64,000 nt of DNA from a plasmid. The notes beneath the pieces are model-generated. The model made no database searches. It worked only from the letters and a program-made list of their open reading frames with translations, and was not told where the DNA came from. Shown here piece by piece: positions 1-47,155 of this stretch; within the stretch, counting starts at the first letter, position 1, and each line of letters opens with the position of its first letter. Location of the stretch: sequence record NZ_CP070571.1; one strand, 5' to 3'. Made by a program: the position numbers and the translations under genes.

Positions 1-317
1 GCATGCTCACGGCGGGTATTTTCCCTCTGACCGTATTCTGCAAGAACGGTGATATCACGAATCCCGAGCTGTCTGGCGGTAAAATGCCGGACGCCGGAAG
101 GAATATGATTCATGTCAGTAAGAAAAGTGCCCAGAAAACGCACACACCCGATTTGCAGGGCAATACCAAGTCGATTGTGATCACCCCGGCTTTTCCCGAT
201 AAATTCTTTATCCGCTTCATCAAGATGAAAATAACGCGCCAGCTGAAGTTCATCGGGTTCGCCAGTGAACCTGCCATAACTCTCAACCTGCTCAGTGGTC
301 AAAAAATCAACGGGCAT
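1..317 (-). CDS. tnpA: Tn3-family transposase TnpA, N-terminal ~105 codons (continues beyond window start)
   Basis: Reverse-strand translation from ATG at 315-317 gives MPVDFLTTEQVESYGRFTGEPDELQLARYFHLDEADKEFIGKSRGDHNRLGIALQIGCVRF..., the Tn3/Tn1331 TnpA N-terminus. It is divergent from tnpR across a res-sized gap. Absent from the ORF track because no stop codon falls inside the window. Confidence 0.8.
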   Translation of the reverse strand, partial: MPVDFLTTEQVESYGRFTGEPDELQLARYFHLDEADKEFIGKSRGDHNRLGIALQIGCVRFLGTFLTDMNHIPSGVRHFTARQLGIRDITVLAEYGQRENTRREH

Positions 318-329
318 ATCGGCCTCCCT

Positions 330-1036
<707 letters not shown>

Positions 1037-1218
1037 TACGCCTATTTTTATAGGTTAATGTCATGATAATAATGGTTTCTTAGACGTCAGGTGGCACTTT
1101 TCGGGGAAAAGTGCGCGGAACCCCTATTTGTTTATTTTTCTAAATACATTCAAATATGTATCCGCTCATGAGACAATAACCCTGATAAATGCTTCAATAA
1201 TATTGAAAAAGGAAGAGT
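1037..1218 (+). promoter_or_regulatory. blaTEM promoter/leader remnant driving aac(6')-Ib (Tn1331 arrangement)
   Basis: Sequence ...ttcaaatatgtatccgctcatgagacaataaccctgataaatgcttcaataatattgaaaaaggaagagt ATG AGT ATT CAA CAT TTC C is the blaTEM-1 promoter and the first 6 codons. It then runs into aac(6')-Ib. Confidence 0.75.
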
Positions 1219-1824
1219 ATGAGTATTCAACATTTCCAAACAAAGTTAGGCATCACAAAGTACAGCATCGTGACCAACAGCAACGATTCCGTCACACTGC
1301 GCCTCATGACTGAGCATGACCTTGCGATGCTCTATGAGTGGCTAAATCGATCTCATATCGTCGAGTGGTGGGGCGGAGAAGAAGCACGCCCGACACTTGC
1401 TGACGTACAGGAACAGTACTTGCCAAGCGTTTTAGCGCAAGAGTCCGTCACTCCATACATTGCAATGCTGAATGGAGAGCCGATTGGGTATGCCCAGTCG
1501 TACGTTGCTCTTGGAAGCGGGGACGGATGGTGGGAAGAAGAAACCGATCCAGGAGTACGCGGAATAGACCAGTTACTGGCGAATGCATCACAACTGGGCA
1601 AAGGCTTGGGAACCAAGCTGGTTCGAGCTCTGGTTGAGTTGCTGTTCAATGATCCCGAGGTCACCAAGATCCAAACGGACCCGTCGCCGAGCAACTTGCG
1701 AGCGATCCGATGCTACGAGAAAGCGGGGTTTGAGAGGCAAGGTACCGTAACCACCCCAGATGGTCCAGCCGTGTACATGGTTCAAACACGCCAGGCATTC
1801 GAGCGAACACGCAGTGTTGCCTAA
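1219..1824 (+). CDS. aac(6')-Ib: aminoglycoside 6'-N-acetyltransferase AAC(6')-Ib, Tn1331-type TEM-leader fusion; W102 and D179, so not the -cr allele
   Basis: MSIQHF (TEM start) fused to ...[26 protein letters not shown]...[10 protein letters not shown]...[24 protein letters not shown]. Confidence 0.9.
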
Positions 1825-1893
1825 CCCTTCCATCGAGGGGGACGTCCAAGGGCTGGCGCCCTTGGCCGCCCCTCATGTCAAACGTTAAACATC
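1825..1893 (+). other. attC (59-be) of the aac(6')-Ib cassette
   Basis: Imperfect palindrome cccttccatcgagggggacgtccaagggctggcgcccttggccgcccctcatgtcaaacgttaaac between the aac stop and the aadA1 start. Confidence 0.5.
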
Positions 1894-2111
1894 ATGAGGG
1901 AAGCGGTGATCGCCGAAGTATCGACTCAACTATCAGAGGTAGTTGGCGTCATCGAGCGCCATCTCGAACCGACGTTGCTGGCCGTACATTTGTACGGCTC
2001 CGCAGTGGATGGCGGCCTGAAGCCACACAGTGATATTGATTTGCTGGTTACGGTGACCGTAAGGCTTGATGAAACAACGCGGCGAGCTTTGATCAACGAC
2101 CTTTTGGAAAC
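1894..2111 (+). pseudogene. aadA1: aadA1 5' fragment (first ~73 codons), truncated by IS26
   Basis: MREAVIAEVSTQLSEVVGVIERHLEPTLLAVHLYGSAVDGGLKPHSDIDLLVTVTVRLDETTRRALINDLLETA, then the IS26 IRL GGCACTGTTGCAAA at 2112. Confidence 0.85.
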
Positions 2112-2520
2112 GGCACTGTTGCAAATAGTCGGTGGTGATAAACTTATCATCCCCTTTTGCTGATGGAGCTGCACATGAACCCATTCAAAGGCCGGCATTT
2201 TCAGCGTGACATCATTCTGTGGGCCGTACGCTGGTACTGCAAATACGGCATCAGTTACCGTGAGCTGCAGGAGATGCTGGCTGAACGCGGAGTGAATGTC
2301 GATCACTCCACGATTTACCGCTGGGTTCAGCGTTATGCGCCTGAAATGGAAAAACGGCTGCGCTGGTACTGGCGTAACCCTTCCGATCTTTGCCCGTGGC
2401 ACATGGATGAAACCTACGTGAAGGTCAATGGCCGCTGGGCGTATCTGTACCGGGCCGTCGACAGCCGGGGCCGCACTGTCGATTTTTATCTCTCCTCCCG
2501 TCGTAACAGCAAAGCTGCAT
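2112..2520 (+). mobile_element. tnp26: IS26, left 409 bp (IRL plus first ~115 codons of tnp26), interrupted by Tn4401
   Basis: IRL GGCACTGTTGCAAATAGTCGGTGG at 2112. tnp26 ATG at 2175 (MNPFKGRHFQRDIILWAVRWYCKYG...SSRRNSKAA). Ends in TGCAT (2516-2520), which is repeated at 12428-12432. Confidence 0.9.
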
Positions 2521-2560
2521 GGGGGGGTAAGCGGGAACCCCAGAAAATTCCGCCATTCCG
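2521..2560. repeat. Tn4401 terminal inverted repeat (ISKpn6 side)
   Basis: GGGG-initiated IR matching the inverted copy at 12388-12427 in about 34 of 39 positions. Confidence 0.75.
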
Positions 2561-2816
2561 CATTGTGGAATTTTTTGGGGGGGTGGTCCGCGGCATGACG
2601 ACCCGCCAAAGGCTACCGCATCTATCTGAGGCGCTGTGGCGCGACGCTGAAACCCCGGGGAATTCCGCTACTCCAGTTCCAGGTCCGCAATAGTTCGTCC
2701 AGGTCGGGTGGCGTACGCCGGAAACGCCGATTTTTCCGCAACCGTTTCTGCGTTGTCGGCAAGGTGGTCTCAGAGAGCGCTCAAGAAGCGGTTTTTCTCG
2801 TATGTTTAGCTACGGT

Positions 2817-4367
2817 GGCCTAGGAGCCTGCGCGGCAGAAGCCAAATCGGCGGAAGATCGAGGACGATACGGGGATGGCTGCCAGTTACCTTCCTTACCG
2901 ACCCGACCAATCCTATCTGCTGCCCCCTTCTCTGGGAGAGTGGCTACCTGAAGGGCATCTTGCCTACTTCATCAGCGAGACTGTCGATACGCTGGACTTG
3001 AGCGCATTCCACGCCCGGTATGCCGGCGGTGGTCCGGGCAATCAGCCGTTTCATCCGGCGATGATGGTCAAAGTGCTGATCTATGGTTACGCGAGCGGCG
3101 TCTTCTCTTCGCGCAAACTAGCCAGGAAGCTGTACGAGGATGTCGCGTTGCGTGTGCTGGCCGCTGGAAACTTCCCGGCCCACCGCACGCTGAGTGACTT
3201 CCGTGCCCTACACCTGACCGAGCTTGAGAATTTGTTCGTTCAGGTGGTGCAACTGGCGCGCGAATGTGGGCTGGTGAAGCTTGGCACGATCGCGGTCGAC
3301 GGCACCAAGGTAAAAGCCAACGCCAGCCGCCACAAGGCGATGAGCTATAAGCGCATGAAGCCGGCCGAGGACGAATTGCATTGCGAGATCAAGGCGCTGC
3401 TTGATCGCGCCAAGGCTACCGACGACCAGGAGCGTAACGAGCCGGAGCTGGACATTCCTGCCGAGATTTCTCGCCGCGAGAAGCGCCTGGAGGCGATCCA
3501 GGCGGCAAAGGCGCGCCTGGAAGCGCGCCAGCGTGAAGCGGACCAGGCCCGGGGGCGCAGCGAAGACGATGGCCGCCGGCCTCGCCATCCGGATGGCTCG
3601 GACAAGGGCGGTGGCTCGTACAAACGCGAGTTTGGTGTGCCGGATGACCGTGATCAGGAAAGCTTCACCGATCCGGACAGCCGGATCATGAAACACGCCG
3701 GTGGTGGCTCCGAGCAGAGCTACAACGGGTACACAGCGGTCGATGCCGAGCACCAGATCATCGTGGCGGCGGAGTTGACCAACTGCGCCGCGGACAGTCA
3801 GGCGCTGCTGGGCATGCTGGCAGCAGTTCAGGCCAACACCGGAGAAATGCCGGCCCAGACGCTGGCGGATGCGGGATTCCGTAGTGAGGCTGTTCTGGCA
3901 AAGGTCGCCGATCACCACGGCGATGTCATCGTTGCCCTCGGCCGCGAGGGACGTGAAGATGCCAAGGTCAATGCCAAGACCCATCCGCATACGGCGGCGA
4001 TTGCGGCGAAATTGAAAACGGAGCAAGGCGATGCAGCTTACCGCCGGCGCAAGTCGATCGTGGAGGCTCCGAATGGTTGGATCAAGGCGGTGATGGGATT
4101 GCGTCAGTTCAGCATGAGGGGCCTGGACAAGGTGCAAGCCGAGTGGAAGCTCGTCTGCATGGCGCTAAATCTGAGGCGAATGGCGTATCTGTGAGGGCGA
4201 AGGTTAAATGGGGCGGCTCAAATGCACCCCAGTCGTCATAACACGCCGCGCGCCGCAAGATTGGTATCCTTGGCGCCGACGCCTTGCCAATTGCAGAGAG
4301 CGCCGCCGCCATCGTCAGTGCTCTACAGAAAACCGGTCACACGGCTCTGCCGCGCAGACTCCTAGCC
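2817..4367 (+). mobile_element. ISKpn6 (IS1182 family), ~1.55 kb
   Basis: Terminal IRs GGCCTAGGAGCCTGCGCGGCAG (2817) and CTGCCGCGCAGACTCCTAGCC (4347-4367) flank a single DDE transposase ORF. Confidence 0.75.
2875..4194 (+). CDS. ISKpn6 transposase (IS1182/IS5-superfamily DDE), 439 aa
   Basis: MAASYLPYRPDQSYLLPPSLGEWLPEGHLAYFISETVDTLDLSAFHARYAGGGPGNQPFHPAMMVKVLIYGYASGVFSSRKLARKLYEDVALRVLAAGNFPAHRTLSDFR... is the typical IS1182-family N-terminus. Position is immediately downstream of blaKPC as in Tn4401. Confidence 0.8.
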   Translation: MAASYLPYRPDQSYLLPPSLGEWLPEGHLAYFISETVDTLDLSAFHARYAGGGPGNQPFHPAMMVKVLIYGYASGVFSSRKLARKLYEDVALRVLAAGNFPAHRTLSDFRALHLTELENLFVQVVQLARECGLVKLGTIAVDGTKVKANASRHKAMSYKRMKPAEDELHCEIKALLDRAKATDDQERNEPELDIPAEISRREKRLEAIQAAKARLEARQREADQARGRSEDDGRRPRHPDGSDKGGGSYKREFGVPDDRDQESFTDPDSRIMKHAGGGSEQSYNGYTAVDAEHQIIVAAELTNCAADSQALLGMLAAVQANTGEMPAQTLADAGFRSEAVLAKVADHHGDVIVALGREGREDAKVNAKTHPHTAAIAAKLKTEQGDAAYRRRKSIVEAPNGWIKAVMGLRQFSMRGLDKVQAEWKLVCMALNLRRMAYL

Positions 4368-4443
4368 TAAATGTGACAGTGGTTGGTAATCCATGCCGCC
4401 CGCAAGGGCGGCGGTGGTGGGCCAATAGATGATTTTCAGAGCC

Positions 4444-5325
4444 TTACTGCCCGTTGACGCCCAATCCCTCGAGCGCGAGTCTAGCCGCAGCGGCGATGAC
4501 GGCCTCGCTGTGCTTGTCATCCTTGTTAGGCGCCCGGGTGTAGACGGCCAACACAATAGGTGCGCGCCCAGTGGGCCAGACGACGGCATAGTCATTTGCC
4601 GTGCCATACACTCCGCAGGTTCCGGTTTTGTCTCCGACTGCCCAGTCTGCCGGCACCGCCGCGCGGATGCGGTGGTTGCCGGTCGTGTTTCCCTTTAGCC
4701 AATCAACAAACTGCTGCCGCTGCGGCGCAGCCAGTGCAGAGCCCAGTGTCAGTTTTTGTAAGCTTTCCGTCACGGCGCGCGGCGATGAGGTATCGCGCGC
4801 ATCGCCTGGGATGGCGGAGTTCAGCTCCAGCTCCCAGCGGTCCAGACGGAACGTGGTATCGCCGATAGAGCGCATGAAGGCCGTCAGCCCGGCCGGGCCG
4901 CCCAACTCCTTCAGCAACAAATTGGCGGCGGCGTTATCACTGTATTGCACGGCGGCCGCGGACAGCTCCGCCACCGTCATGCCTGTTGTCAGATATTTTT
5001 CCGAGATGGGTGACCACGGAACCAGCGCATTTTTGCCGTAACGGATGGGTGTGTCCAGCAAGCCGGCCTGCTGCTGGCTGCGAGCCAGCACAGCGGCAGC
5101 AAGAAAGCCCTTGAATGAGCTGCACAGTGGGAAGCGCTCCTCAGCGCGGTAACTTACAGTTGCGCCTGAGCCGGTATCCATCGCGTACACACCGATGGAG
5201 CCGCCAAAGTCCTGTTCGAGTTTAGCGAATGGTTCCGCGACGAGGTTGGTCAGCGCGGTGGCAGAAAAGCCAGCCAGCGGCCATGAGAGACAAGACAGCA
5301 GAACTAGACGGCGATACAGTGACAT
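4444..5325 (-). CDS. blaKPC-2: KPC class A carbapenemase, 293 aa; H272 present, so KPC-2-type rather than KPC-3
   Basis: [293 protein letters not shown] matches KPC-2 as remembered. The ORF-track start at 5328 adds one extra Met. Confidence 0.9.
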
Positions 5326-5544
5326 CAACGATATTCCTTGTTTGAAGGTGGAGCTAGGTGTAGCGGCCGGATGTAATCAGGCCGCTACAGCTGGGATTAT
5401 CACCGAGCTTGAAAAACGAATCAGGTCGGCGTTCATGGGTCGGCCACCTCGCCTGACCTCGGCATCCACGTTACGGACGGCCTCAGGAAGTCCTGGCCAA
5501 GCCCCGACTATTGGGGCGCGAAGATAGCACCGAGGGTACGCCGG
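5326..5544 (-). promoter_or_regulatory. blaKPC upstream promoter region (219 bp between ISKpn7 IRR and the KPC ATG)
   Basis: The spacing fits the 99-bp-deleted Tn4401a upstream region. Individual -35/-10 boxes not assigned. Confidence 0.4.
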
Positions 5545-5612
5545 TGTCAACACCAACTGAAAACTGACCCACTTTACCCCTGAATCACCAAAGTAATACT
5601 GACCCACCTGGA

Positions 5613-7438
<1,826 letters not shown>

Positions 7439-7520
7439 ACTAGCCCAGGTGGATCAGTTTTACTTCGCTGGGGTGGGTCAGTTTTACACTGCTGCTAACA
7501 CGGAACCGCTGAAAATTCCG

Positions 7521-10500
7521 TCACTCCAGTTCCAGGCCTGCGACGATCGCATCGAGATCGATCGTCTTGCCGCTGCTTTGAAAGGTGTAGTGCCCGTTGA
7601 GCAGGATGTGCCGCCATGCCGCAGGCGAAATTTTTGTGATGAGTGCCAGCGCCTTGCTGTTGCCGGCCGCCTCGTACTTGGTCACCAGCCGCGACAAGAT
7701 TGCCGAGTTGTAGAAAATGATCGTGTTGGCGATCAGCCGTGCGCACTGGTTGCTGATCTCGATTTCAATGTCGGTGCGACCGGTCAGTTCCTTCTTACCG
7801 CCGACCTGGGCAATGGCCGAGCGTAGCTGATGGTAGGACTCGAGGCGATTTTGCGAGCGGTGCACGTTGCGTTCCAGTTGCGGATCGCGCAGGTAGCGAA
7901 GCGTGTAGATGCTGCGGATGAGCTTGTCGAACTCGAAGATCGCGCGCCGCGTCGGGTTCGTCGTGGTGTAGGTGCACAGCTTGCGGATCAGCGTGCCCTG
8001 CGTCATTTCCTTCAGCCCGAGTGTGGCGACGATCCGGTCGATGTTCGGCTTCTCGCGATGGATGAGATCGCAGTCGATTTTCCCGACTGGCCGAATCAGG
8101 CACGCCTGATACTGTGCTGGATCGTCAGCGCAGTAGAGTTCTTTCAATTGCGCGTTGAGGTCGGTGAAGCGCGGCTCGAACCGCCGGCCAAACCAATGCA
8201 GGATGGCGAAGTTGGCCTTGTTGACGCTGTGCATGTCGCCGGTGATCGCGGTCGGCATGATGTCCGACGTGTTGCGATACCAGATGTCGAACACGTGGTG
8301 GGCCTCGTAGTCGTGCGCGCCGATCAGGTAGCCGTTGAGCGGGATGTGGTTGCACAGCAGCGTGTAGGCGACCACGCCCTTGCCGCGCCCGAAGTACTTG
8401 CGCGAATAGCGCGCCTTCACGGTCGGCCGTTCGACGCTGAATTTCTGCCCGTCGACGGCACCGTACAGCGTTTCGAGGTCGAACGAGTAGTATGGGAAGA
8501 TCGGTAGCGTGGCGATGGCGTTGCTGATGCAGTCGTTGGCCGCGTGCAGCGTTGCCTGGCGCAGGTACTGCTGGTAGCCGCTATCCAGCACGTGGTACGG
8601 GATGTCGCTGGTGCGCGCCATGACGTGGTTGCCGTGGTTCATCGCTTGCGCGATGATGACCGCCATCAGGCTGTCAGCGTCGGCGACCTTCTTCGCGTAG
8701 CGCGGCTGCATGGGCGTGAACGCCGACAGAAACTTGCACTCGTCGTTGACGAAGCGAAACACGTCGGCCACGTCGCAGAACGGAAGCTTCTCGTAGAATG
8801 CCTTTTCGCGCGCTTTCTCATTCTCGCTCTTGGGCTTGCGCCAGGTCAGTTTCTGCGTGTCCTTGTTGTATTCGAGGTGCGTCAGCTTGCCCTGTTTCAG
8901 CTCGCGGTTGAACGCCAGCCACTGCGTGCGCAGTTCGGCAGTCAGCGCATCGAGTTGGGCATGGACGGGTTGCTGCAGGAAGGGGATCTCCATTTTTGCG
9001 AGCACATCGATCTTCCTGTCCATCTCAACCAGTTCATCTGAGAAGTGCCGGTGTTGCAGGCTGTCGTCGAGGTAGAGTTCACCCGATTGGAGACGCTTCC
9101 TGATCTGGCGGTACAGCCAGAACTCGTAGCGGTCAGCGTGCAGGCCGGTTGGTTTACCGTCGGCGTCGAAGGTCAGCAGGTACGGCCGCAAGCGTTTCGG
9201 AAGTGTCGCCGCGGGCCACTCGTCGAGTGGCCGTTGCGACAGCCGCTGCTGCTTGGCAAAAACACCTTTGGCCCAGGCCAGCGCGGCAAGCCATGGACTG
9301 TCTGGATTGGAGCCGGAGAGGTCGAGCGCAACGTACAGTGGACGAAGATGGCGGCGCATGCGGTCGGCCAGCCCGTCCACCGCCTGCCACTGCAAGGCCA
9401 GCTTGCTCGCCGGCTTCACGCTCATACGCTGCGCCGTGGTTTGCAGCGTATCGCGAGGCATGATCTTGTAGGCGCGCTGCCGCACCTCGCCGAAGGGCGT
9501 GGGATCGGCCACGCTATCATCAACGTAGAGTGACAGCAGGCGGCCTACCCGCGGCGTTTCCTGCTGACGGCGCACCTGCTCGTCGGCAAAGGATTGTTTG
9601 GCACCAGCGCTGCTTTCGTCCTCCAACTGCTTCATGTGGTACGCCATCGCATCGACCAGGTTGTCGGAGAGCTGCCGGTAGCGTACCCAGGCATAGCACA
9701 GCAGGTAGAGTTGGGTCTGATCGGCCTTCAGATTGCGCAGGTCGTGGACGGTGTAGAAGTTTGCCAGGCTCGCGTAGTACAGCAGGTTCTGCTGCGAGAC
9801 GTCGAGTTTAGGCAGCAGTGTCTTGGCGATTGCGTGCAGCGGCTCCAGCGTGGCGCGCTTTTCGCGCTCGCGGACCATCTGGCGCCAGCCGAAATTCTTG
9901 GCGTCCTGCTTGAGCGCCGCCAGTTGCGACAGGGTGTCATCACGGACCAGAAGCTGGCTCAGCGCGGCCTTGGCAGATTCGTCCAACGCTTGCTCCAGCA
10001 GATTGCCCAGGCGCCGGCGCTCGGCGGATAGCGTTTCGCTGACCAACTCTTGCAAGGTCGTATAGCCGGGCCGGATAATCTTGTGCTCATTGAGCCAGAC
10101 GATCAGCTCGGCGGCGACGAACCCCGGCGTTACGTCACGCCGCACGGTCCGTGCGGCCTGCTGCTCGAGCTGCGGCAGGAAGGCGGCCGACCACGGCCAG
10201 TAGCCGAATAGTTTGGCGATCTGCTCGCGCTGGGTGTAGCGTTCATGCTTGGTGATCGCCTTGGGTTCGAACACCTCGCCGTGGAAATAGCGGCTCAGCA
10301 CGAAAGCGCAATCGTCCTCGACTTCGTCCCAGTCGAAACTGAAGAAGGCATGCTTGGCCTTGAAGTAGCCGATCTGCAAGAGGCAATAGACCTTGGCATG
10401 AAGACTGGGCCGGCTGTTGGCAAGCGCCAACTCGGTTTCTGTCACAGCCAGATATTCCAGCTGCTGCGCATCATCGAACTCCGGCAGGCCATACAAGGCC

Positions 10501-10550
10501 TCCTGTTCGGCGTCGGATAGGACGCTGAGTAGCTTGTTCTTCTTGCTCAT
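7521..10550 (-). CDS. tnpA: Tn4401 Tn3-family DDE transposase TnpA (1009 aa)
   Basis: About 1,000 aa with the Tn3-family C-terminal catalytic domain. Divergent from tnpR across a 110-bp putative res region. Confidence 0.85.
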   Translation of the reverse strand: MSKKNKLLSVLSDAEQEALYGLPEFDDAQQLEYLAVTETELALANSRPSLHAKVYCLLQIGYFKAKHAFFSFDWDEVEDDCAFVLSRYFHGEVFEPKAITKHERYTQREQIAKLFGYWPWSAAFLPQLEQQAARTVRRDVTPGFVAAELIVWLNEHKIIRPGYTTLQELVSETLSAERRRLGNLLEQALDESAKAALSQLLVRDDTLSQLAALKQDAKNFGWRQMVREREKRATLEPLHAIAKTLLPKLDVSQQNLLYYASLANFYTVHDLRNLKADQTQLYLLCYAWVRYRQLSDNLVDAMAYHMKQLEDESSAGAKQSFADEQVRRQQETPRVGRLLSLYVDDSVADPTPFGEVRQRAYKIMPRDTLQTTAQRMSVKPASKLALQWQAVDGLADRMRRHLRPLYVALDLSGSNPDSPWLAALAWAKGVFAKQQRLSQRPLDEWPAATLPKRLRPYLLTFDADGKPTGLHADRYEFWLYRQIRKRLQSGELYLDDSLQHRHFSDELVEMDRKIDVLAKMEIPFLQQPVHAQLDALTAELRTQWLAFNRELKQGKLTHLEYNKDTQKLTWRKPKSENEKAREKAFYEKLPFCDVADVFRFVNDECKFLSAFTPMQPRYAKKVADADSLMAVIIAQAMNHGNHVMARTSDIPYHVLDSGYQQYLRQATLHAANDCISNAIATLPIFPYYSFDLETLYGAVDGQKFSVERPTVKARYSRKYFGRGKGVVAYTLLCNHIPLNGYLIGAHDYEAHHVFDIWYRNTSDIMPTAITGDMHSVNKANFAILHWFGRRFEPRFTDLNAQLKELYCADDPAQYQACLIRPVGKIDCDLIHREKPNIDRIVATLGLKEMTQGTLIRKLCTYTTTNPTRRAIFEFDKLIRSIYTLRYLRDPQLERNVHRSQNRLESYHQLRSAIAQVGGKKELTGRTDIEIEISNQCARLIANTIIFYNSAILSRLVTKYEAAGNSKALALITKISPAAWRHILLNGHYTFQSSGKTIDLDAIVAGLELE

Positions 10551-10659
10551 GGCCCGTTCTTGCTATCTTGAGGTTTCGTAGAAACATGGGGCATTTTCGA
10601 TTCTACTGAAATAATCGTTATTATCGCGTTACTCGCTTTTCGAATCGCAACCTGTCCAT
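10551..10659. promoter_or_regulatory. putative res / divergent promoter region of Tn4401
   Basis: Intergenic gap between divergent tnpA and tnpR. Confidence 0.4.
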
Positions 10660-12375
10660 ATGAAAACGGGCCAGACTACGGCTTCGAGTTCTACCCCAGT
10701 CGGCTTTCCCGATGCGGATTCGCTGGCTGCCTTGCGCGGCTGGTACGCGGGACTCAGCTCTCGCGCGGCCGTTGAACACTACCTGGCGGCACGCAAGGCC
10801 GCCGGTCAATCAGCGCGAGGGATGCTGGGGCATATCCGCCGCCAGCTCATCGTTTTCGCCAACAGCCGCCACCGGCCGGATCTGGCCGACGTGTTCCAGC
10901 ACGCCCCCGAAGAGCGACAGGGGCGCGCGGGTGCCGTCGAACGCGCGATCCGGCTCTTGCCCACGCTGCCGGCGCCGAAGCCCCAGATCAGCGACAGCAT
11001 CGACCAGTGGCTGTCTCCGAGGACCGTCAGGGCACTGCAGGCGTACGGTATCCACACCCTCTCGGCGCTGACCGTGCGCATTCCCCGCCGGCGTGGCTGG
11101 TGGAAAGCCATCGAGGGACTCGGCATGACAGGCGCCCGGCAGGTCGAGGCTTTCTTTGCCGCACATCCGCAGCTCACCGAGCGCGCCCGGGCCCTGATCC
11201 CGATTATTCAGCCCAGCGGCATCGTGCCGTGGGAGCAGTTGCGTCTGCCGAACGAAGTCGACGGCTCGCAGGGCAATTTCCGGGCCCCGCGCAACGCTTG
11301 CACGCTGAATGCGACCAACGACTACGAGGCCGTGCAGGCCTGGCTGGCGCTGCACGAGACTGTCGCCACACAGCGCGCCTATCGCAAGGAGGCTGCGCGG
11401 CTAATCCTGTGGGCCATCGTCGAACGCGGACGGGCGCTATCATCCCTGACCACGGACGATGCAATCGCGTACCGGGCCTTTGTCCGGCACCCGACCCCGC
11501 GCGAGCGTTGGGTGGGGCCACCTCGACCACGCGATTCGGTGGAATGGCGCCCCTTCTCGGGCGGCTTGTCCGCACGCTCGGCAGCGTATGCGCTGACGGT
11601 GCTCTCGGCGCTGTTCCGGTGGCTCATCGAGCAGCGCTATGTGCTGGCCAACCCTTTCGCCGGCGTCAAGGTACGCGGTCACGCCTTGCGGCCCGCACTG
11701 GATACGGCGCGAGGCTTTACCGAGGGAGAATGGCTACTGCTGCGCGCCATTGCAGACGGCCTGGAATGGTCCTACGGCTGGTCCGAGCCGGCAGCACAAC
11801 GCCTGCGCTTCATGCTCGACTTCGGCTATGCCACGGGCCTGCGCGCTAGCGAACTGGTCGGCGCCGTCCTGGGTAATGTCCGCCTCGACGAGCACGGTGA
11901 CCACTGGCTGCATTTGGTTGGCAAAGGTGGCAAACCAGGTAAGGTGGCCTTGCCGCCGCTCGCGTATACGGCGCTGGACCAATACTTGGCACAGCGTCAA
12001 CTGCCAGTCAGCCGGGAACGGTGGAATCCGAAAACGCCCCTGGTGGGCAGTCTTGGGGAAGACGGTAATGCCGGCATCACCGGCCCTCACCTTTGGTGCG
12101 TGTTGCGAAGATTCTTTACGCAAGCCGCTGAGGCCATTGAGGCCGATCATCCGGTCGCCGCCGAAAAGCTGCGCCGTGCCACGCCTCATTGGATGCGTCA
12201 CAGTCATGCCAGCCATGCGTTGGCCCGGGGAGCTCAGCTCACCGCGGTGCGCGACAACCTACGCCATGCGTCGATCGCCACGACGTCGATGTATTTGCAT
12301 GGCGATGAGCTCGAGCGCGCCAGGCAGATGCGGCAGGCTTTTGGCGCTCGTCACGTCAAGCGAGGAGTCGACTGA
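10660..12375 (+). CDS. tnpR: Tn4401 tnpR product: large (571 aa) tyrosine-recombinase-type resolvase
   Basis: C-terminal R...H..R...Y signature (RATPHWMRHSHASHALARGAQL ... NLRHASIATTSMYLH). Sits in the resolvase position of the transposon. Ends 12 bp before the IR. Confidence 0.75.
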   Translation: MKTGQTTASSSTPVGFPDADSLAALRGWYAGLSSRAAVEHYLAARKAAGQSARGMLGHIRRQLIVFANSRHRPDLADVFQHAPEERQGRAGAVERAIRLLPTLPAPKPQISDSIDQWLSPRTVRALQAYGIHTLSALTVRIPRRRGWWKAIEGLGMTGARQVEAFFAAHPQLTERARALIPIIQPSGIVPWEQLRLPNEVDGSQGNFRAPRNACTLNATNDYEAVQAWLALHETVATQRAYRKEAARLILWAIVERGRALSSLTTDDAIAYRAFVRHPTPRERWVGPPRPRDSVEWRPFSGGLSARSAAYALTVLSALFRWLIEQRYVLANPFAGVKVRGHALRPALDTARGFTEGEWLLLRAIADGLEWSYGWSEPAAQRLRFMLDFGYATGLRASELVGAVLGNVRLDEHGDHWLHLVGKGGKPGKVALPPLAYTALDQYLAQRQLPVSRERWNPKTPLVGSLGEDGNAGITGPHLWCVLRRFFTQAAEAIEADHPVAAEKLRRATPHWMRHSHASHALARGAQLTAVRDNLRHASIATTSMYLHGDELERARQMRQAFGARHVKRGVD

Positions 12376-12387
12376 ATTTTCATCATA

Positions 12388-12427
12388 CGGAATGACGGAA
12401 TTTTCTGGGATTCCCGCTTAGAACCCC
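12388..12427. repeat. Tn4401 terminal inverted repeat (tnpR side)
   Basis: Reverse complement reads GGGGTTCTAAGCGGGAATCCCAGAAAATTCCGTCATTCCG. Confidence 0.75.
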
Positions 12428-12432
12428 TGCAT

Positions 12433-12843
12433 ACCGGTTTCTGGGTAAAATCCTCAACAACGTGAAGAAGTGGCAGATCCCGCGATTCATCAACACGGAT
12501 AAAGCGCCCGCCTATGGTCGCGCGCTTGCTCTGCTCAAACGCGAAGGCCGGTGCCCGTCTGACGTTGAACACCGACAGATTAAGTACCGGAACAACGTGA
12601 TTGAATGCGATCATGGCAAACTGAAACGGATAATCGGCGCCACGCTGGGATTTAAATCCATGAAGACGGCTTACGCCACCATCAAAGGTATTGAGGTGAT
12701 GCGTGCACTACGCAAAGGCCAGGCCTCAGCATTTTATTATGGTGATCCCCTGGGCGAAATGCGCCTGGTAAGCAGAGTTTTTGAAATGTAAGGCCTTTGA
12801 ATAAGACAAAAGGCTGCCTCATCGCTAACTTTGCAACAGTGCC
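12433..12843 (+). mobile_element. tnp26: IS26, right 411 bp (tnp26 3' part plus IRR), continuation of the element interrupted at 2520
   Basis: Resumes ...YRFLGKILNNVKKWQIPRFINTDKAPAYG... through the stop at 12791. IRR TTTGCAACAGTGCC at 12830-12843. Left plus right parts total 820 bp plus the 5-bp TSD. Confidence 0.9.
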
Positions 12844-12912
12844 GGATTGAATATAACCGACGTGACTGTTACATTTAGGTGGCTAAACCCGTCAAGCCCT
12901 CAGGAGTGAATC

Positions 12913-13818
12913 ATGACCGTAGTCACGACCGCCGATACCTCCCAACTGTACGCACTTGCAGCCCGACATGGGCTCAAGCTCCATGGCCCGCTGACTGTCA
13001 ATGAGCTTGGGCTCGACTATAGGATCGTGATCGCCACCGTCGACGATGGACGTCGGTGGGTGCTGCGCATCCCGCGCCGAGCCGAGGTAAGCGCGAAGGT
13101 CGAACCAGAGGCGCGGGTGCTGGCAATGCTCAAGAATCGCCTGCCGTTCGCGGTGCCGGACTGGCGCGTGGCCAACGCCGAGCTCGTTGCCTATCCCATG
13201 CTCGAAGACTCGACTGCGATGGTCATCCAGCCTGGTTCGTCCACGCCCGACTGGGTCGTGCCGCAGGACTCGGAGGTCTTCGCGGAGAGCTTCGCGACCG
13301 CGCTCGCCGCCCTGCATGCCGTCCCCATTTCCGCCGCCGTGGATGCGGGGATGCTCATCCGTACACCGACGCAGGCCCGTCAGAAGGTGGCCGACGACGT
13401 TGACCGCGTCCGACGCGAGTTCGTGGTGAACGACAAGCGCCTCCACCGGTGGCAGCGCTGGCTCGACGACGATTCGTCGTGGCCAGATTTCTCCGTGGTG
13501 GTGCATGGCGATCTCTACGTGGGCCATGTGCTCATCGACAACACGGAGCGCGTCAGCGGGATGATCGACTGGAGCGAGGCCCGCGTTGATGACCCTGCCA
13601 TCGACATGGCCGCGCACCTTATGGTCTTTGGTGAAGAGGGGCTCGCGAAGCTCCTCCTCACGTATGAAGCGGCCGGTGGCCGGGTGTGGCCGCGGCTCGC
13701 CCACCACATCGCGGAGCGCCTTGCGTTCGGGGCGGTCACCTACGCACTCTTCGCCCTCGACTCGGGTAACGAAGAGTACCTCGCTGCGGCGAAGGCGCAG
13801 CTCGCCGCAGCGGAATGA
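12913..13818 (+). CDS. mph(A): macrolide 2'-phosphotransferase Mph(A), 301 aa
   Basis: MTVVTTADTSQLYALAARHGLKLHGPLTVNELGLDYRIVIATVDDGRRWVLRIPRRAEV...HGDLYVGHVLID... APH-like kinase fold. Located in the canonical IS26-mph(A)-mrx-mphR-IS6100 module. Confidence 0.9.
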   Translation: MTVVTTADTSQLYALAARHGLKLHGPLTVNELGLDYRIVIATVDDGRRWVLRIPRRAEVSAKVEPEARVLAMLKNRLPFAVPDWRVANAELVAYPMLEDSTAMVIQPGSSTPDWVVPQDSEVFAESFATALAALHAVPISAAVDAGMLIRTPTQARQKVADDVDRVRREFVVNDKRLHRWQRWLDDDSSWPDFSVVVHGDLYVGHVLIDNTERVSGMIDWSEARVDDPAIDMAAHLMVFGEEGLAKLLLTYEAAGGRVWPRLAHHIAERLAFGAVTYALFALDSGNEEYLAAAKAQLAAAE

Positions 13819-15053
13819 GCGAACGTCGATATAGCCCGCTCGCGACGCTGTTCGCGGCGACCTTTCTCTTCCGGATCGGCAACGCGGTGGCGGCCCTCGC
13901 GCTTCCATGGTTCGTCCTGTCTCATACAAAGAGCGCGGCCTGGGCGGGCGCCACGGCCGCTAGCAGCGTCATCGCGACCATCATCGGCGCGTGGGTTGGT
14001 GGTGGCCTCGTCGATCGGTTCGGGCGCGCGCCCGTCGCATTGATCTCGGGTGTGGTGGGCGGCGTGGCCATGGCGAGCATCCCACTGCTCGATGCCGTTG
14101 GCGCCCTCTCGAACACTGGGCTGATCGCTTGCGTGGTGCTCGGTGCCGCGTTCGACGCACCCGGTATGGCCGCGCAGGACAGTGAGCTGCCCAAACTCGG
14201 CCACGTCGCCGGGCTCTCCGTTGAGCGCGTCTCGTCACTGAAAGCGGTGATCGGGAACGTCGCGATTCTAGGTGGCCCGGCCCTTGGGGGGGCCGCAATC
14301 GGCCTGCTTGGCGCTGCGCCAACGCTCGGGCTGACGGCGTTCTGCTCCGTCCTTGCAGGTCTGCTCGGCGCGTGGGTGCTTCCCGCGCGTGCCGCTCGGA
14401 CGATGACCACGACGGCGACTCTCTCCATGCGCGCCGGCGTCGCTTTTCTCTGGAGCGAACCCCTGCTGCGCCCTCTCTTTGGTATAGTGATGATCTTCGT
14501 GGGCATCGTTGGCGCCAACGGCAGCGTCATCATGCCTGCGCTGTTTGTAGATGCAGGACGCCAAGTAGCAGAGCTCGGGCTGTTCTCCTCAATGATGGGG
14601 GCTGGTGGTCTCCTTGGCATTGCCATTCATGCGTCGGTCGGCGCCCGGATATCAGCGCAGAACTGGCTGGCGGTGGCATTTTGTGGCTCTGCGGTGGGCT
14701 CGCTTCTGCTTTCACAGTTGCCAGGCGTGCCGGTGCTGATGTTGTTGGGCGCGCTCGTGGGACTGCTGACCGGCTCAGTCTCTCCCATTCTCAACGCTGC
14801 CATCTACAACCGCACGCCGCCAGAACTTCTCGGCCGGGTACTCGGCACGGTCTCGGCGGTGATGCTGTCAGCCTCGCCCATGGTTATGCTTGCGGCCGGC
14901 GCGTTTGTCGACCTTGCTGGTCCGCTCCCTGGCCTCGTTGTATCGGCCGTGTTTGCGGGGCTCGTGGCTCTACTCTCGCTCCGTCTTCAATTTGCTACAA
15001 TGGCGGCGGCAGCCACAGCCTCCGCCCCAACCCATACAGAAGGTGAACACTGA
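13815..15053 (+). CDS. mrx: MFS transporter Mrx(A), 412 aa
   Basis: Polytopic membrane protein between mph(A) and mphR(A). Start overlaps the mph(A) stop. Confidence 0.85.
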   Translation: MSERRYSPLATLFAATFLFRIGNAVAALALPWFVLSHTKSAAWAGATAASSVIATIIGAWVGGGLVDRFGRAPVALISGVVGGVAMASIPLLDAVGALSNTGLIACVVLGAAFDAPGMAAQDSELPKLGHVAGLSVERVSSLKAVIGNVAILGGPALGGAAIGLLGAAPTLGLTAFCSVLAGLLGAWVLPARAARTMTTTATLSMRAGVAFLWSEPLLRPLFGIVMIFVGIVGANGSVIMPALFVDAGRQVAELGLFSSMMGAGGLLGIAIHASVGARISAQNWLAVAFCGSAVGSLLLSQLPGVPVLMLLGALVGLLTGSVSPILNAAIYNRTPPELLGRVLGTVSAVMLSASPMVMLAAGAFVDLAGPLPGLVVSAVFAGLVALLSLRLQFATMAAAATASAPTHTEGEH

Positions 15054-15637
15054 TGCCCCGCCCCAAGCTCAAGTCCGATGACGAGGTACTCGAGGCCGCC
15101 ACCGTAGTGCTGAAGCGTTGCGGTCCCATAGAGTTCACGCTCAGCGGAGTAGCAAAGGAGGTGGGGCTCTCCCGCGCAGCGTTAATCCAGCGCTTCACCA
15201 ACCGCGATACGCTGCTGGTGAGGATGATGGAGCGCGGCGTCGAGCAGGTGCGGCATTACCTGAATGCGATACCGATAGGCGCAGGGCCGCAAGGGCTCTG
15301 GGAATTTTTGCAGGTGCTCGTTCGGAGCATGAACACTCGCAACGACTTCTCGGTGAACTATCTCATCTCCTGGTACGAGCTCCAGGTGCCGGAGCTACGC
15401 ACGCTTGCGATCCAGCGGAACCGCGCGGTGGTGGAGGGGATCCGCAAGCGACTGCCCCCAGGTGCTCCTGCGGCAGCTGAGTTGCTCCTGCACTCGGTCA
15501 TCGCTGGCGCGACGATGCAGTGGGCCGTCGATCCGGATGGTGAGCTAGCTGATCATGTGCTGGCTCAGATCGCTGCCATCCTGTGTTTAATGTTTCCCGA
15601 ACACGACGATTTCCAACTCCTCCAGGCACATGCGTAA
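15053..15637 (+). CDS. mphR(A): TetR-family repressor MphR(A), 194 aa
   Basis: N-terminal TetR HTH (FTLSGVAKEVGLSRAALIQRFTNRDTLL). Position matches the known module. Confidence 0.85.
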   Translation: MPRPKLKSDDEVLEAATVVLKRCGPIEFTLSGVAKEVGLSRAALIQRFTNRDTLLVRMMERGVEQVRHYLNAIPIGAGPQGLWEFLQVLVRSMNTRNDFSVNYLISWYELQVPELRTLAIQRNRAVVEGIRKRLPPGAPAAAELLLHSVIAGATMQWAVDPDGELADHVLAQIAAILCLMFPEHDDFQLLQAHA

Positions 15638-16075
15638 ACGGAGGTGTGCAGAGTCCCTGCGGCAGGCGACGAACACGACCGTCGTCGATTAGTACCGGTA
15701 CGGTCGGTGGTATCGAAGTCTTGATCACCACTCAGGTCTACGGCTTACAAATGGTGACCATCCCGATACTTGCGTCAGAGCACCGGGCCGATTCTTTGAC
15801 AGTGAATCACTCCCGTAAGGTTGTGCCGGTGTGGGTGTCCCGGGTCGAGACGATACTCCGCCAATGCGCCCAGCAAACAACCTGGCCATCGCAGGTGGTG
15901 GGGAGCGGTGTGGCGGATGAGTTGGACAAGTTGGTGTAGCAGCACGAGCACGGCGAGATAACATCGCAGGAGTTCGACATGCTCAAGAGACAGCTGATTG
16001 CGAATCGCGATGCAGATTCATAACCCGATTGCGGGTTGGCTTCACTCCACCATCACCGAGCAGACTAGCACGGCG

Positions 16076-16955
16076 GGCTCTGTTGCAAAGATTGGCGGCA
16101 GTCAGAGGTAGGCTGTCGCTCTGCGCCGATCAGGCGGCTGCTGCGAAATGGTGGTTGAGCATGCCCATGGCCTCCGTCAGCGCCGAGGGCCCAATGCCAA
16201 AAGCTCTCTCCACAAGGCGCACCTCGCCCCTGATGCCGGGCTGCAGGCACCAGGGGCGAGCCTGTCCTTTGCGCAGGGCTCGCATGACTTCGAATCCCTT
16301 GATCGTGGCATAGGCCGTGGGGATCGATTTGAAACCGCGCACCGGCTTGATCAGTATCTTGAGCTTTCCGTGATCGGCCTCGATCACGTTATTGAGATAC
16401 TTCACCTGCCGGTGGGCCGTCTCCCGGTCCAGCTTTCCTTCGCGCTTCAATTCGGTGATCGCTGCACCATAGCTCGGCGCTTTGTCGGTATTGAGCGTGG
16501 CAGGCTTTTCCCAGTGCTTCAGGCCTCGCAGGGCCTTGCCCAGGAACCGCTTCGCTGCCTTGGCGCTGCGGGTCGGCGACAGGTAGAAATCGATCGTGTC
16601 GCCCCGCTTGTCGACTGCCCGGTACAGGTAGGTCCACTTGCCCCGCACCTTGACGTAGGTTTCATCCAGGCGCCAGCTCGGATCAAAGCCACGCCGCCAG
16701 AACCAGCGCAGCCGCTTCTCCATCTCCGGGGCGTAGCACTGGACCCAGCGATAGATCGTCGTATGGTCGACCGAAATGCCGCGTTCCGCCAGCATTTCCT
16801 CAAGGTCGCGATAGCTGATCGGATAGCGACAATACCAGCGCACCGCCCACAGGATCACATCACCCTGGAAATGGCGCCACTTGAAATCCGTCATCGTTCC
16901 GTCCGTCCAATCTCCGCCAAGCATGCTCAAGCTTCACGATTTTTGCAACAGAGCC
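16076..16955 (-). mobile_element. IS6100 (IS6 family), 880 bp
   Basis: 14-bp IRs GGCTCTGTTGCAAA at 16076 and its complement at 16942-16955. Length is exactly 880 bp. Confidence 0.9.
16130..16930 (-). CDS. IS6100 transposase
   Basis: ...MTDFKWRHFQGDVILWAVRWYCRYPISYRDLEEMLAERGISVDHTTIYRWVQCYAPEMEKRLRWFWRRGFDPSWRLDETYVKV... is the IS6-family DDE transposase, distinct from Tnp26. Confidence 0.9.
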   Translation of the reverse strand: MSMLGGDWTDGTMTDFKWRHFQGDVILWAVRWYCRYPISYRDLEEMLAERGISVDHTTIYRWVQCYAPEMEKRLRWFWRRGFDPSWRLDETYVKVRGKWTYLYRAVDKRGDTIDFYLSPTRSAKAAKRFLGKALRGLKHWEKPATLNTDKAPSYGAAITELKREGKLDRETAHRQVKYLNNVIEADHGKLKILIKPVRGFKSIPTAYATIKGFEVMRALRKGQARPWCLQPGIRGEVRLVERAFGIGPSALTEAMGMLNHHFAAAA

Positions 16956-17053
16956 CACACGAGTATTGAGCATAGTCGAGATTGGTGCAGATCACTTCTG
17001 ATATTGAACTGTCAGGAGCTGGCTGCACAACAGCCATTACGCCCAATCAACTG

Positions 17054-17078
17054 GTGCAGTCGTCTTCTGAAAATGACA
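17054..17078. repeat. class 1 integron IRt (25 bp)
   Basis: GTGCAGTCGTCTTCTGAAAATGACA is the reverse complement of TGTCATTTTCAGAAGACGACTGCAC. Lies ~100 bp from IS6100 as in In4-type 3' ends. Confidence 0.8.
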
Positions 17079-17120
17079 ATCCAGTTAGGGTATAGCTCAA
17101 CCTGACATAGAAGCAAAAAC

Positions 17121-17426
17121 TCAACCACCTTCTACCAACTCTCCGAACAGCTCCTTGACCTTTGTTTTCGCATCAGCAAGTGCAGTTCTGCCTTGTTCAG
17201 TGATGTCATAAACACGCCGTTCACGTCGCCCGGTGCGTTCGTGGCGTGAGGTCAGATAGCCTTTTTTTTCCAGGCCGTGCAGCATCGGGTACACGGTGCC
17301 AGCGCTCATCTCGTAGCCGTGTCGGCGTAGCTCTTCGATGATCCCCAGCCCAAAGACAGGTTCCTCGGCTGCATGGTGAAGGATGTGCAGGCGGATCAAA
17401 CCGCCGTAGAGGTCTTTGTCAGTCAT
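17121..17426 (-). CDS. padR: PadR-family transcriptional regulator (101 aa), the orf98 partner of chrA
   Basis: MTDKDLYGGLIRLHILHHAAEEPVFGLGIIEELRRHGYEMSAGTVYPMLHGLEKKGYLTS is the PadR winged-helix signature. Confidence 0.8.
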   Translation of the reverse strand: MTDKDLYGGLIRLHILHHAAEEPVFGLGIIEELRRHGYEMSAGTVYPMLHGLEKKGYLTSRHERTGRRERRVYDITEQGRTALADAKTKVKELFGELVEGG

Positions 17427-17436
17427 TTTTTGTGCC

Positions 17437-18642: not shown

Positions 18643-18786
18643 ACTTTCGCCTTCATGATCTGCAACGAGTTGATCAATAATAAGCGAAATTCGATAACGA
18701 AATTCGATATAAATCTAGAAAAAAATACCTCTATGTGTACTACGCAGTTTTAGCTGTGGCTTTCACAGGAGCACGCTTACTTACGG

Positions 18787-18803
18787 CTTAGCGTGCTTTA
18801 TTT
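18787..18803. repeat. outer 17 bp of a Tn21-family 38-bp terminal IR, split by IS5075
   Basis: CTTAGCGTGCTTTATTT. Joined to 20132-20152 it reconstitutes CTTAGCGTGCTTTATTTTCCGTTTTCTGAGGCGATCCC, about 2 mismatches from the Tn21 IR. Confidence 0.7.
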
Positions 18804-32619: not shown

Positions 32620-33111
32620 GTCTGTGTTGTAAAATGGCGCCGAAAGCCCGGCGTAGCCGGTTGCCGGGCTATAAATTCTGCCACCCTACCCCCTGCCCTG
32701 ATTAGCCTTAACTCGCGAACAGCAATGAAGAAGTCAAAGTAATCCCTTTTAACCCCGGTGAGCGGGCTTTACGGCGTTTACGACGTAAAGGGCGTGATTT
32801 CCGGGGCCTAAGCGGCGGCAGCTTGCTGCTGACGCTTAGGGGGATGTTCATCAACTATTTCAGCGACACCAGGGAACTTAACACGGTAGCTGCAAAGCCC
32901 TAATCCCGCTCACCGCCACGCAGCTGCCGTACGTCCCCCACGGGGGTGCGCAGTGCTGCGCGCGGGAACGGCGGCCCGTCTGCGGGACGCGGCGCCGTAC
33001 TGCGCGTTAGCGGCCGCACGCGGCCGGTTACGGGGGACACTCCGCCATACGACCAGCGACCCGCTGAGCTGCACAATCCACAGATAACACAAGCTACATA
33101 CATGTCGATAT

Positions 33112-33940: not shown

Positions 33941-33989
33941 TTCATGACAAAAATTTGTCAAATGACAGGCTCATGTGTGCTGATTTATG

Positions 33990-45334: not shown

Positions 45335-45384
45335 TGATCATTTACCCCTTTATATTCCTGAGAAATCCCGCCCTCTGTCCGTAG

Positions 45385-46952: not shown

Positions 46953-46983
46953 TCCCGTAATAATTTCCGTGACGGAGACGACA

Positions 46984-47047: not shown

Positions 47048-47155
47048 CTCCCGACTGGATTTGCCCCTATATTTCCAGACACCTGTTATCACTTAATGGA
47101 GTGACCCCGAGCCCGTAGACAAATCTGCCCTATAGTTTGAGCATAGGAGGAGTCT

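Follow-up and report, generated by a model that had tools for sequence, protein, structure and literature searches.

How did the carbapenemase transposon of the plasmid NZ_CP070571.1 come to lie inside an insertion sequence, and is this arrangement peculiar to that plasmid? We addressed both questions in a stretch of 64,000 nt of the plasmid, read on one strand and hereafter called the window, on which all coordinates are based. An initial annotation, made from the letters alone, had described a complete Tn4401 carrying blaKPC-2 that had entered an existing IS26. Our analysis confirms the arrangement: a complete Tn4401a (blaKPC-2) lies within IS26, and the window is carbapenem-resistance plasmid DNA of clinical relevance in which the transposon is intact. 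Judged from deposited sequences, the nesting is already known, as the sequenced hallmark of a lineage of Czech hospital plasmids. It reveals nothing new about the biology of Tn4401 or of IS26, and serves to illustrate how elements nest and how plasmids fuse by way of IS26.

An intact Tn4401a between two pieces of IS26

The IS26, an IS6-family element, is split between positions 2520 and 12433. Its left part (2112-2520, plus strand, 409 bp; IS26 nt 1-409) carries the left terminal repeat (IRL, 2112-2125) and the start of tnp26 at 2175, and its right part (12433-12843, plus strand, 411 bp; IS26 nt 410-820) carries the 3' part of tnp26 and the right terminal repeat (IRR, 12830-12843). The outer ends at 2112 and 12843 are the 14-bp terminal inverted repeats GGCACTGTTGCAAA, both perfect. 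The window also holds an intact IS26 in direct orientation (50783-51602, plus strand; its 234-aa Tnp26 scores 275.6 bits, cut-off 125), which served as an internal standard: the two pieces align to its positions 50783-51191 and 51192-51602 without a mismatch, and their lengths add up to 820 bp, as had been claimed. The only alignment columns in which the pieces overlap are TGCAT, a pentamer that adjoins both ends of Tn4401, at 2516-2520 (IS26 nt 405-409) and at 12428-12432, and that is found once in the intact copy, at nt 405-409. In the canonical orientation of Tn4401 this duplication reads ATGCA. Two 5-bp flanks are identical by chance in about 1 of 1024 cases; chance as the source of the match is irrelevant here because IS26 is reconstituted exactly. 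Intermolecular replicative transposition characteristically leaves a 5-bp target-site duplication. This, and the fact that the pieces restore IS26 exactly with TGCAT as the sole shared bases, bear out the proposal that a complete Tn4401 entered an existing IS26 by simple transposition.

The insertion interrupts tnp26 after codon 115. The resulting frame encodes residues 1-115 of the 234 of Tnp26 and then reads on through Tn4401 DNA as far as a stop at 2693, so that no intact tnp26 (234 aa) is present in the split copy. Since Tnp26 is truncated after residue 115, the split IS26 is disabled: its sequence predicts an element that keeps both terminal repeats and cannot make its own transposase. 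Eight-base-pair target-site duplications were found neither around the split IS26 (flanks TTGGAAAC versus GGATTGAA) nor around the intact one (TCAACGCT versus CTGATAAA), a lack that is expected for IS26 copies with later recombination or deletion.

The insert itself (2521-12427, minus strand, 9,907 bp) is inverted with respect to the canonical map, with its ISKpn6 end at 2521 and its tnpR end at 12427. The terminal inverted repeats at 2521-2559 (ISKpn6 end, canonical IRR) and 12389-12427 (tnpR end, canonical IRL) pair imperfectly, with 34 of 39 positions complementary, the terminal repeat of Tn4401 being about 39 bp long. As a reference we used the 10,006-bp Tn4401b of Klebsiella pneumoniae plasmid 9 (NC_011383), whose ends are identical to those of the insert. 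The two elements align in two colinear blocks of 100% identity (insert nt 1-7019 and 7020-9907; Tn4401b nt 1-7019 and 7119-10006), leaving only nt 7020-7118 of Tn4401b missing, a 99-bp deletion with unambiguous ends. Aside from this deletion, the insert shows no internal rearrangement and not a single point change (0 SNPs) relative to the reference. In the TETyper supplement, deletion of 7020-7118 on the 10,006-bp reference corresponds to Tn4401a; both the length of Tn4401b given in the initial annotation and its assignment of the 9,907-bp element to isoform a were thus correct.

The gene order tnpR-tnpA-ISKpn7(istA, istB)-blaKPC-ISKpn6 is uninterrupted, and PLSDB records with the same sequence annotate it as Tn4401 genes. 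The tnpR gene (10660-12375, plus strand, 571 aa) is a Tn4401-family resolvase gene according to the annotation of identical records; the C-terminal half of its product resembles tyrosine recombinases below curated cut-offs, and all other proteins of the element score above their NCBIfam cut-offs. These include the Tn3-family transposase TnpA (7521-10550, minus strand, 1009 aa; NF033527, 855.8 bits against 500), IstB (5613-6392; 452.5 bits against 300) and IstA (6389-7414; 316.8 bits against 160) of the 1,956-bp ISKpn7 (5545-7500, minus strand), and the IS1182-family transposase (2875-4194; 398 bits against 270) of ISKpn6, whose approximate ends (2820-4365, plus strand) were set from 20-bp inverted repeats at 2820-2839 and 4346-4365 that are 95% complementary. 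With tnpA, tnpR and both terminal repeats whole and matching the reference at every base, the element is fully intact and presumably transposable.

The gene of the carbapenemase, a class A beta-lactamase (4444-5325, minus strand, 293 aa), scores 684.8 bits against the KPC family model NF012141 (cut-off 625), and its DNA is identical to that of plasmid pKpn-35786cz, which AMRFinderPlus calls KPC-2 at 100%; translation, family model and identical annotated DNA agree with the earlier naming as blaKPC-2. Between its start codon and the ISKpn7 end at 5545 lie 219 bp (5326-5544, minus strand), the distance first reported, with the boundaries of ISKpn7 now set by an independent copy on the Pseudomonas paraeruginosa plasmid CP029094, to which identity starts and stops at 5545 and 7500. 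This spacer lacks the 99 bp of Tn4401b: the joint falls between 5408 and 5409, and the alignment of the non-a isoforms ends exactly at 5409. A P2-like promoter is predicted on the minus strand from 5550 to 5521 (TTGACA-18-TATCTT), its -35 box lying inside the end of ISKpn7, and the deletion places this ISKpn7-end promoter 99 bp nearer to blaKPC. Isoform a belongs to a class of promoter-region deletions that have been linked in the literature to higher blaKPC expression.

Distribution of the IS26::Tn4401a junction

A search for other plasmids with the same joints, as suggested in the initial annotation, used the junction sequences AAAGCTGCAT/GGGGGGG and GAACCCC/TGCAT/ACCGG. The exact junction is present in 14 of 72,556 PLSDB plasmids, all of them Czech KPC-2 plasmids of the IncR, IncR-IncN3 or IncP6 type, from four genera (Citrobacter, Klebsiella, Escherichia and Morganella). 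Identical junctions occur on IncR plasmids (pKpn-35786cz, the pCfr-...cz series and p50821_KPC), on IncR-IncN3 fusions (pCfr-36049cz, and p52810_KPC per PMC8333104) and on IncP6 plasmids (pCfr-33795cz and pMmo-37590cz), and the junction-positive plasmids correspond to the Czech KPC-2 plasmid lineage described in PMC8333104. The left junction had no exact match in GTDB species-representative genomes or JGI metagenome contigs, and megablast found no match to the junction in 5,426 complete E. coli genomes. One additional right-junction match, in CP019010, consisted of two pieces spanning 374 bp and was judged an artefact of joined pieces. The resistance block of the IncP6 plasmid pCfr-33795cz was also considered as a compound IS26 transposon that employed the outer end of the split IS26, a reading that was set aside: the block lacks an 8-bp duplication and still has 10 bp of the former IncR flank attached.

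What distinguishes these plasmids is the site of insertion and not the transposon. Tn4401a as found in pKpQIL-type plasmids and in numerous further KPC plasmids (TETyper type Tn4401a-1) shares the 9,907-bp structure, the 99-bp deletion, the absence of SNPs against the Tn4401b of plasmid 9, and blaKPC-2; the sole difference is the target, TGCAT in IS26 (ATGCA in canonical orientation) as opposed to ATTGA in pKpQIL or GTTCT in Tn1/2/3-like elements, the two flanks that predominate for Tn4401 in public data. Within the examined part of the TETyper table (3,054 public read sets), ATGCA/ATGCA flanks do not occur with Tn4401a, the one combination present being ATGCA/GGCCA with Tn4401b. Because the IS26::Tn4401a junction is rare, it is useful in epidemiology for tracing one Central European plasmid lineage from genus to genus.

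The surroundings point to the same lineage. The window has the IncR backbone together with the In37-sul1-chrA-IS6100-mph(A)-IS26::Tn4401a region that define the Czech IncR lineage, and its mph(A)-IS6100-chrA-sul1-In37 neighbourhood is that of the Czech KPC-2 plasmids. Positions 2112-18803 (the multiresistance region) and 45355-51191 are 100% identical to pKpn-35786cz, and the whole of 2112-51191 is colinear with it at 99.8-100%, the exceptions being an inserted IS110-family element and additional 37-bp repeats. Whereas pKpn-35786cz, a 46.8-kb IncR plasmid, has the split IS26 only, the window adds an intact IS26, a truncated blaTEM and an IncN3-like segment, as well as the IS110-family element (18804-20129) and more of the 37-bp repeats; immediately to the left of the split IS26, a truncated Tn1331 flank stands in place of the IncR flank. 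No single PLSDB record covers the whole window.

The uninterrupted target is also found. KPC-free IncR plasmids with IS26-mph(A)-mrx-mphR-IS6100 share the order flank A-IS26-mph(A) at 99.8-100% identity, here with IS26 intact and without Tn4401a. At least 23 plasmids without Tn4401 present this empty site; they measure 28-59 kb, as do the IncR plasmids with matches to positions 25-50 kb of the window, and some records are common to both sets.

Flanking DNA and the history of the locus

On the left, the IS26 end cuts a 5' fragment of aadA1 (1891-2111, plus strand), whose best NCBIfam match is AadA1 over profile positions 1-67 of 258 only. The fragment is a Tn1331-type remnant, as are tnpR (479-1036) and aac(6')-Ib (1219-1824). 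On the right, the split IS26 is adjoined by mph(A)-mrx-mphR-IS6100-chrA, as annotated in identical records. To the left of the intact IS26 lies the IncR DNA that ancestrally flanked the split copy (the match of 45355-51191 to pKpn-35786cz extends as far as IS26 nt 409), and to its right the 3' end of blaTEM-1 (51605-51775), which translates to ...ASLIKHW and a stop; beyond it, from 51.9 to 64 kb, the window consists of IncN3-like transfer DNA with MobF/T4SS genes. More than 25 other plasmids have the joint of truncated aadA1 to IS26 with 100% identity, and more than 25 likewise have the arrangement truncated aadA1-IS26-truncated blaTEM.

These observations fit a history that we regard as very probable: a single transposition of Tn4401a into IS26, followed by fusion of an IncR and an IncN3 plasmid through IS26-IS26 recombination, the window being part of a fusion plasmid of the Czech hospital type. 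Tn4401a, a Tn3-family replicative transposon, transposed once and duplicated TGCAT at IS26 nt 405-409; the copy it entered would have been the one that bounded mph(A)-mrx-mphR-IS6100 in an IncR plasmid of the pKpn-35786cz/pCfr-type Czech lineage. An exchange probably followed between this split IS26, through its left 409-bp arm or its left end, and the IS26 within a Tn1331 derivative (truncated aadA1-IS26-truncated blaTEM) carried by an IncN3-type replicon, fusing both plasmids. Such an event would place truncated aadA1 beside the split IS26 and give rise to the intact IS26 at 50783 as its reciprocal joint, between the IncR flank and truncated blaTEM/IncN3. Two earlier descriptions need adjusting in this light. 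That IS26 truncates aadA1 holds for the present structure; in the most parsimonious history, the aadA1 flank was probably gained after the insertion of Tn4401a, arriving from the Tn1331 derivative. That the transposon sits in a highly recombinogenic IS26 fails insofar as the element has lost its own transposase, and stands insofar as one of its arms appears to have recombined with another IS26.

On a literal reading of the initial annotation, Tn4401a would instead have entered an IS26 by which aadA1 was already truncated in the Tn1331 derivative (truncated aadA1-IS26-truncated blaTEM), its right 411-bp arm then recombining with an IncR IS26 and the 46.8-kb IncR plasmids arising later by resolution through the left arm. 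This order of events yields exactly the structure of the window, and its starting arrangement is common in KPC-associated K. pneumoniae plasmids. We nevertheless hold it to be unlikely: the 46.8-kb IncR plasmids with a split IS26 only would require one extra event, the expected truncated aadA1-IS26::Tn4401a-truncated blaTEM was absent among the records examined, those examined in detail having mph(A) on the right, and in 12 of the 14 records with the junction the match continues rightward beyond IS26.

A further reading is that the IS26::Tn4401a block (10,732 bp) moves whole, as a giant IS26 mobilized in trans by Tnp26 from another copy, and came to its present place by IS26-type transposition and not by that of Tn4401. 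Both of its 14-bp terminal repeats are intact, and the directly oriented, intact IS26 of the window could supply the transposase; yet the 8-bp flanks of the block differ, mph(A) adjoins it on the right in every junction-positive record examined, no 8-bp duplication surrounds it in the IncP6 relative, and the junction is absent from the E. coli genomes, GTDB representatives and metagenome contigs searched, which makes such movement highly improbable. Mis-joining of IS26 repeats with Tn4401 ends during assembly deserves hardly any credence: a multi-copy IS26 repeat often breaks short-read assemblies, but the junctions recur unchanged in 14 complete plasmids that were deposited independently and represent four genera, and a precise 5-bp duplication with exact reconstitution of IS26 is not a product of mis-assembly.

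With the transposition of Tn4401a into the IncR copy of IS26 placed before the fusion, the fusion itself could have been catalysed by Tnp26 or have depended on RecA, the sequence being compatible with either. The two IS26 copies of the window are identical, with no SNP to mark a crossover, and the reverse order of events would fit the window equally well. It is conceivable, if rather doubtful, that the disabled IS26 served as a substrate for Tnp26 acting in trans, the fusion being a Tnp26-catalysed conservative reaction at its left end and not a RecA-dependent exchange within the 409-bp arm. Were this so, the 10.7-kb IS26::Tn4401a would form a trans-activatable hub, providing a second, IS26-type route for the spread of blaKPC.

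Structure of the Tn4401a insertion in IS26

The insert at 2521-12427 is 9,907 bp long, with ends that form an inverted repeat at 34 of 39 terminal positions. We reverse-complemented it to the canonical Tn4401 orientation and compared it with the 10,006-bp Tn4401b copy of K. pneumoniae plasmid 9 (NC_011383). Two blocks matched at 100%: insert nt 1-7019 (plasmid 9 positions 878-7896) and insert nt 7020-9907 (positions 7996-10883). The single difference is that the window copy lacks exactly nt 7020-7118 (99 bp). The 99 gap columns had unambiguous ends in local alignment, placing the deletion joint between window 5408 and 5409, with its blaKPC-proximal edge 83 bp upstream of the blaKPC ATG. The TETyper supplementary table, with a 10,006-bp reference, labels the '7020-7118' deletion Tn4401a. 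The isoform proposed from length in the initial annotation is thus established, and the Tn4401b length it gave was right. When a 300-bp query across the deletion region was searched, non-a isoforms ceased to align exactly at window 5409; among 60 rows sampled evenly from the 981 matching plasmids, the match broke at the joint in 26 and 12 bp further in 4, while 25 spanned it, making isoform a very common.

Tn4401a carries the ISKpn6 transposase gene (2875-4194, + strand; NCBIfam 398 bits versus a cut-off of 270) and, on the - strand, blaKPC (4444-5325; translated protein at 684.8 bits versus 625 for the KPC family), istB (5613-6392; NCBIfam 452.5 versus 300), istA (6389-7414; NCBIfam 316.8 versus 160) and tnpA (7521-10550; Tn3 family, 855.8 versus 500). 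The blaKPC DNA is the same as in pKpn-35786cz, a 46.8-kb Czech IncR plasmid, where AMRFinderPlus identifies blaKPC-2 at 100%. The remaining gene, tnpR (10660-12375, + strand), is annotated as the Tn4401 resolvase in identical records. Its 571-aa product is unlike the small serine resolvases that Tn3 elements typically encode, and shows similarity to Xer-type tyrosine recombinases in its C-terminal half (sub-threshold NCBIfam, E ~1e-25).

The 14-bp IS26 terminal repeat GGCACTGTTGCAAA lies at 2112 (+) and 12830-12843 (-), and again at 50783/51589 in a second, intact IS26 (50783-51602). Aligned with this copy, 2112-2520 and 12428-12843 show 0 mismatches and have only the TGCAT columns in common (IS26 nt 405-409), so that the IS26 pieces sum to 409 + 411 = 820 bp. 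The insert lies between copies of TGCAT at 2516-2520 and 12428-12432. The nesting of Tn4401 in a split IS26 between identical TGCAT flanks, as initially observed, is confirmed in all details, and the interpretation attached to it is supported with two refinements, one concerning IS26 activity and the other the IS26 in which the insertion occurred.

The insertion truncates Tnp26 of the split IS26 after 115 of its 234 residues, the frame continuing into Tn4401 sequence. The motifs HMDETY, NTDKA and ECDHG presumably carry the DDE triad; the truncated protein keeps the first acidic motif, HMDETY (from residue 76), which the insertion separates from NTDKA (from 136) and from the ECDHG region (from 173). 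Harmer, Moran and Hall (mBio 2014) reportedly found targeted cointegration to be ~30-fold lower when tnp26 was inactivated in either partner. Given this truncation and that drop, the split IS26, previously described as highly recombinogenic, is less so than an intact one would be, but its arms are still good substrates for homologous recombination.

Probable IS26 exchange and plasmid fusion

The window joins an IncR backbone (25-50 kb) to IncN3-like MobF/T4SS DNA (51.9-64 kb). Window 2112-18803, comprising the split IS26, Tn4401a and mph(A) through sul1, is 100% identical to pKpn-35786cz; the match resumes past a 1,326-bp window insertion and runs round the plasmid to window 51191, nt 409 of the intact IS26. 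This intact copy now adjoins the former IncR left flank of the split IS26 (flank A), with the blaTEM-1 3' end on its right (translation …ASLIKHW*).

The two hypothetical parental structures, rebuilt in silico, are each found in plasmids. Flank A-intact IS26-mph(A) without Tn4401, the empty target site, occurs in at least 23 plasmids (99.8-100%). Their sizes, 28-59 kb, fall in the range of the IncR plasmids that match window 25-50 kb, and the two match lists share some records. Truncated aadA1-IS26-truncated blaTEM, a Tn1331 derivative common in K. pneumoniae, occurs in more than 25 plasmids at 100%. The existence of both suggests that the window arose by one IS26-IS26 exchange between them, one already carrying Tn4401a. 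Had Tn4401a first entered the IncR IS26, the exchange would have fallen within the left 409 bp or at the left end; this order is favoured because pKpn-35786cz has the split IS26 only. Insertion first into the IS26 of the Tn1331 derivative, followed by exchange within the right 411 bp, is less favoured and would need an additional resolution step to account for IncR-only plasmids. The split IS26 does adjoin truncated aadA1 (profile positions 1-67 of 258), as initially annotated, but the IncR-first order would make this adjacency secondary to the Tn4401a insertion. Because the IS26 copies are identical, the crossover point is not mappable, and at sequence level RecA-dependent and Tnp26-catalysed routes would look alike. 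Neither IS26 copy in the window is flanked by an 8-bp duplication, as expected after IS26-IS26 exchanges.

The Tn1331-type element (tnpA, tnpR, aac(6')-Ib, truncated aadA1 ... truncated blaTEM-1) is in two parts, at 1-2111 and 51603-51775, separated by the whole IncR plasmid, a footprint of plasmid fusion. IS6100 (16076-16955, 880 bp; terminal repeats GGCTCTGTTGCAAA), which bears a one-mismatch form of the IS26 terminal repeat at 16076/16942, marks the end of the mph(A)-mrx-mphR module; beyond it come padR-chrA-sul1 and the In37 cassette array, a standard architecture. The 1,326-bp insertion (18804-20129), missing at the counterpart site of pKpn-35786cz, encodes an IS110-family transposase (ORF 18870-19874; 341.9 bits versus 140) and is presumably IS4321/IS5075, elements that target Tn21-type terminal repeats. 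In the IncR backbone, a 37-bp unit TGGGAATCCGCCCACCTTGCCGGGCGCCGGTGCCGTG forms 22.5 tandem copies at 33111-33942 (93% matches), a longer array than in pKpn-35786cz.

Distribution of the IS26|Tn4401 junction

Near-complete Tn4401 (at least 80% of a 10.7-kb query) is present in 718 PLSDB plasmids, and the left IS26|Tn4401 junction in only 14 (MF497780-82, MG557994-8000, CP070521, CP070535, CP070550 and OQ127401). All 14 are Czech plasmids of IncR, IncR-IncN3 and IncP6 types, with hosts in Citrobacter, Klebsiella, Escherichia and Morganella. The right junction gave an equal count plus one match made of two pieces, which we judged an artefact. The junction was not found in 5,426 complete E. coli genomes, GTDB representative genomes or metagenome contigs. 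PMC8333104 and its reference 16 describe this Czech KPC-2 lineage, from a Hradec Kralove outbreak in 2014-2016 to nationwide spread in 2018-2019, with Tn4401a throughout. The IS26::Tn4401a structure is thus already known, has been deposited since 2017-2018 and is still circulating; the junction is no surprise and is useful as a lineage marker.

Among the relatives, pCfr-33795cz (IncP6) keeps 10 bp of the ancestral IncR flank (GATCAACGCT, 4313-4322) at the left end of the split IS26; its ~22-kb resistance block terminates in an inverted intact IS26 and lacks a surrounding 8-bp duplication. In pKPC_57185 (OQ127401), a later Czech IncR plasmid, the nesting is one level deeper, a Tn5403-family element (recombinase and transposase, ~37.0-42.4 kb) sitting in the ISKpn6 part of the IS26-nested Tn4401a.

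The ISKpn7-blaKPC region

The ISKpn7 ends were set at 5545 and 7500 (1,956 bp) from the limits of identity to an independent ISKpn7 on a plasmid of Pseudomonas paraeruginosa, so the 219-bp spacer to blaKPC noted earlier (5326-5544) holds. On the blaKPC strand, a strong sigma-70-like site, TTGACA-18-TATCTT (5550 to 5521), spans the ISKpn7 end at 5545 and probably corresponds to promoter P2 of Tn4401. According to the TETyper paper, deletions upstream of blaKPC raise expression. ISKpn7 is bounded by the 3-bp direct repeat CGG (5542-5544 and 7501-7503), and the Pseudomonas copy by AAG. Both are shorter than the 4-8 bp expected of IS21-family elements.
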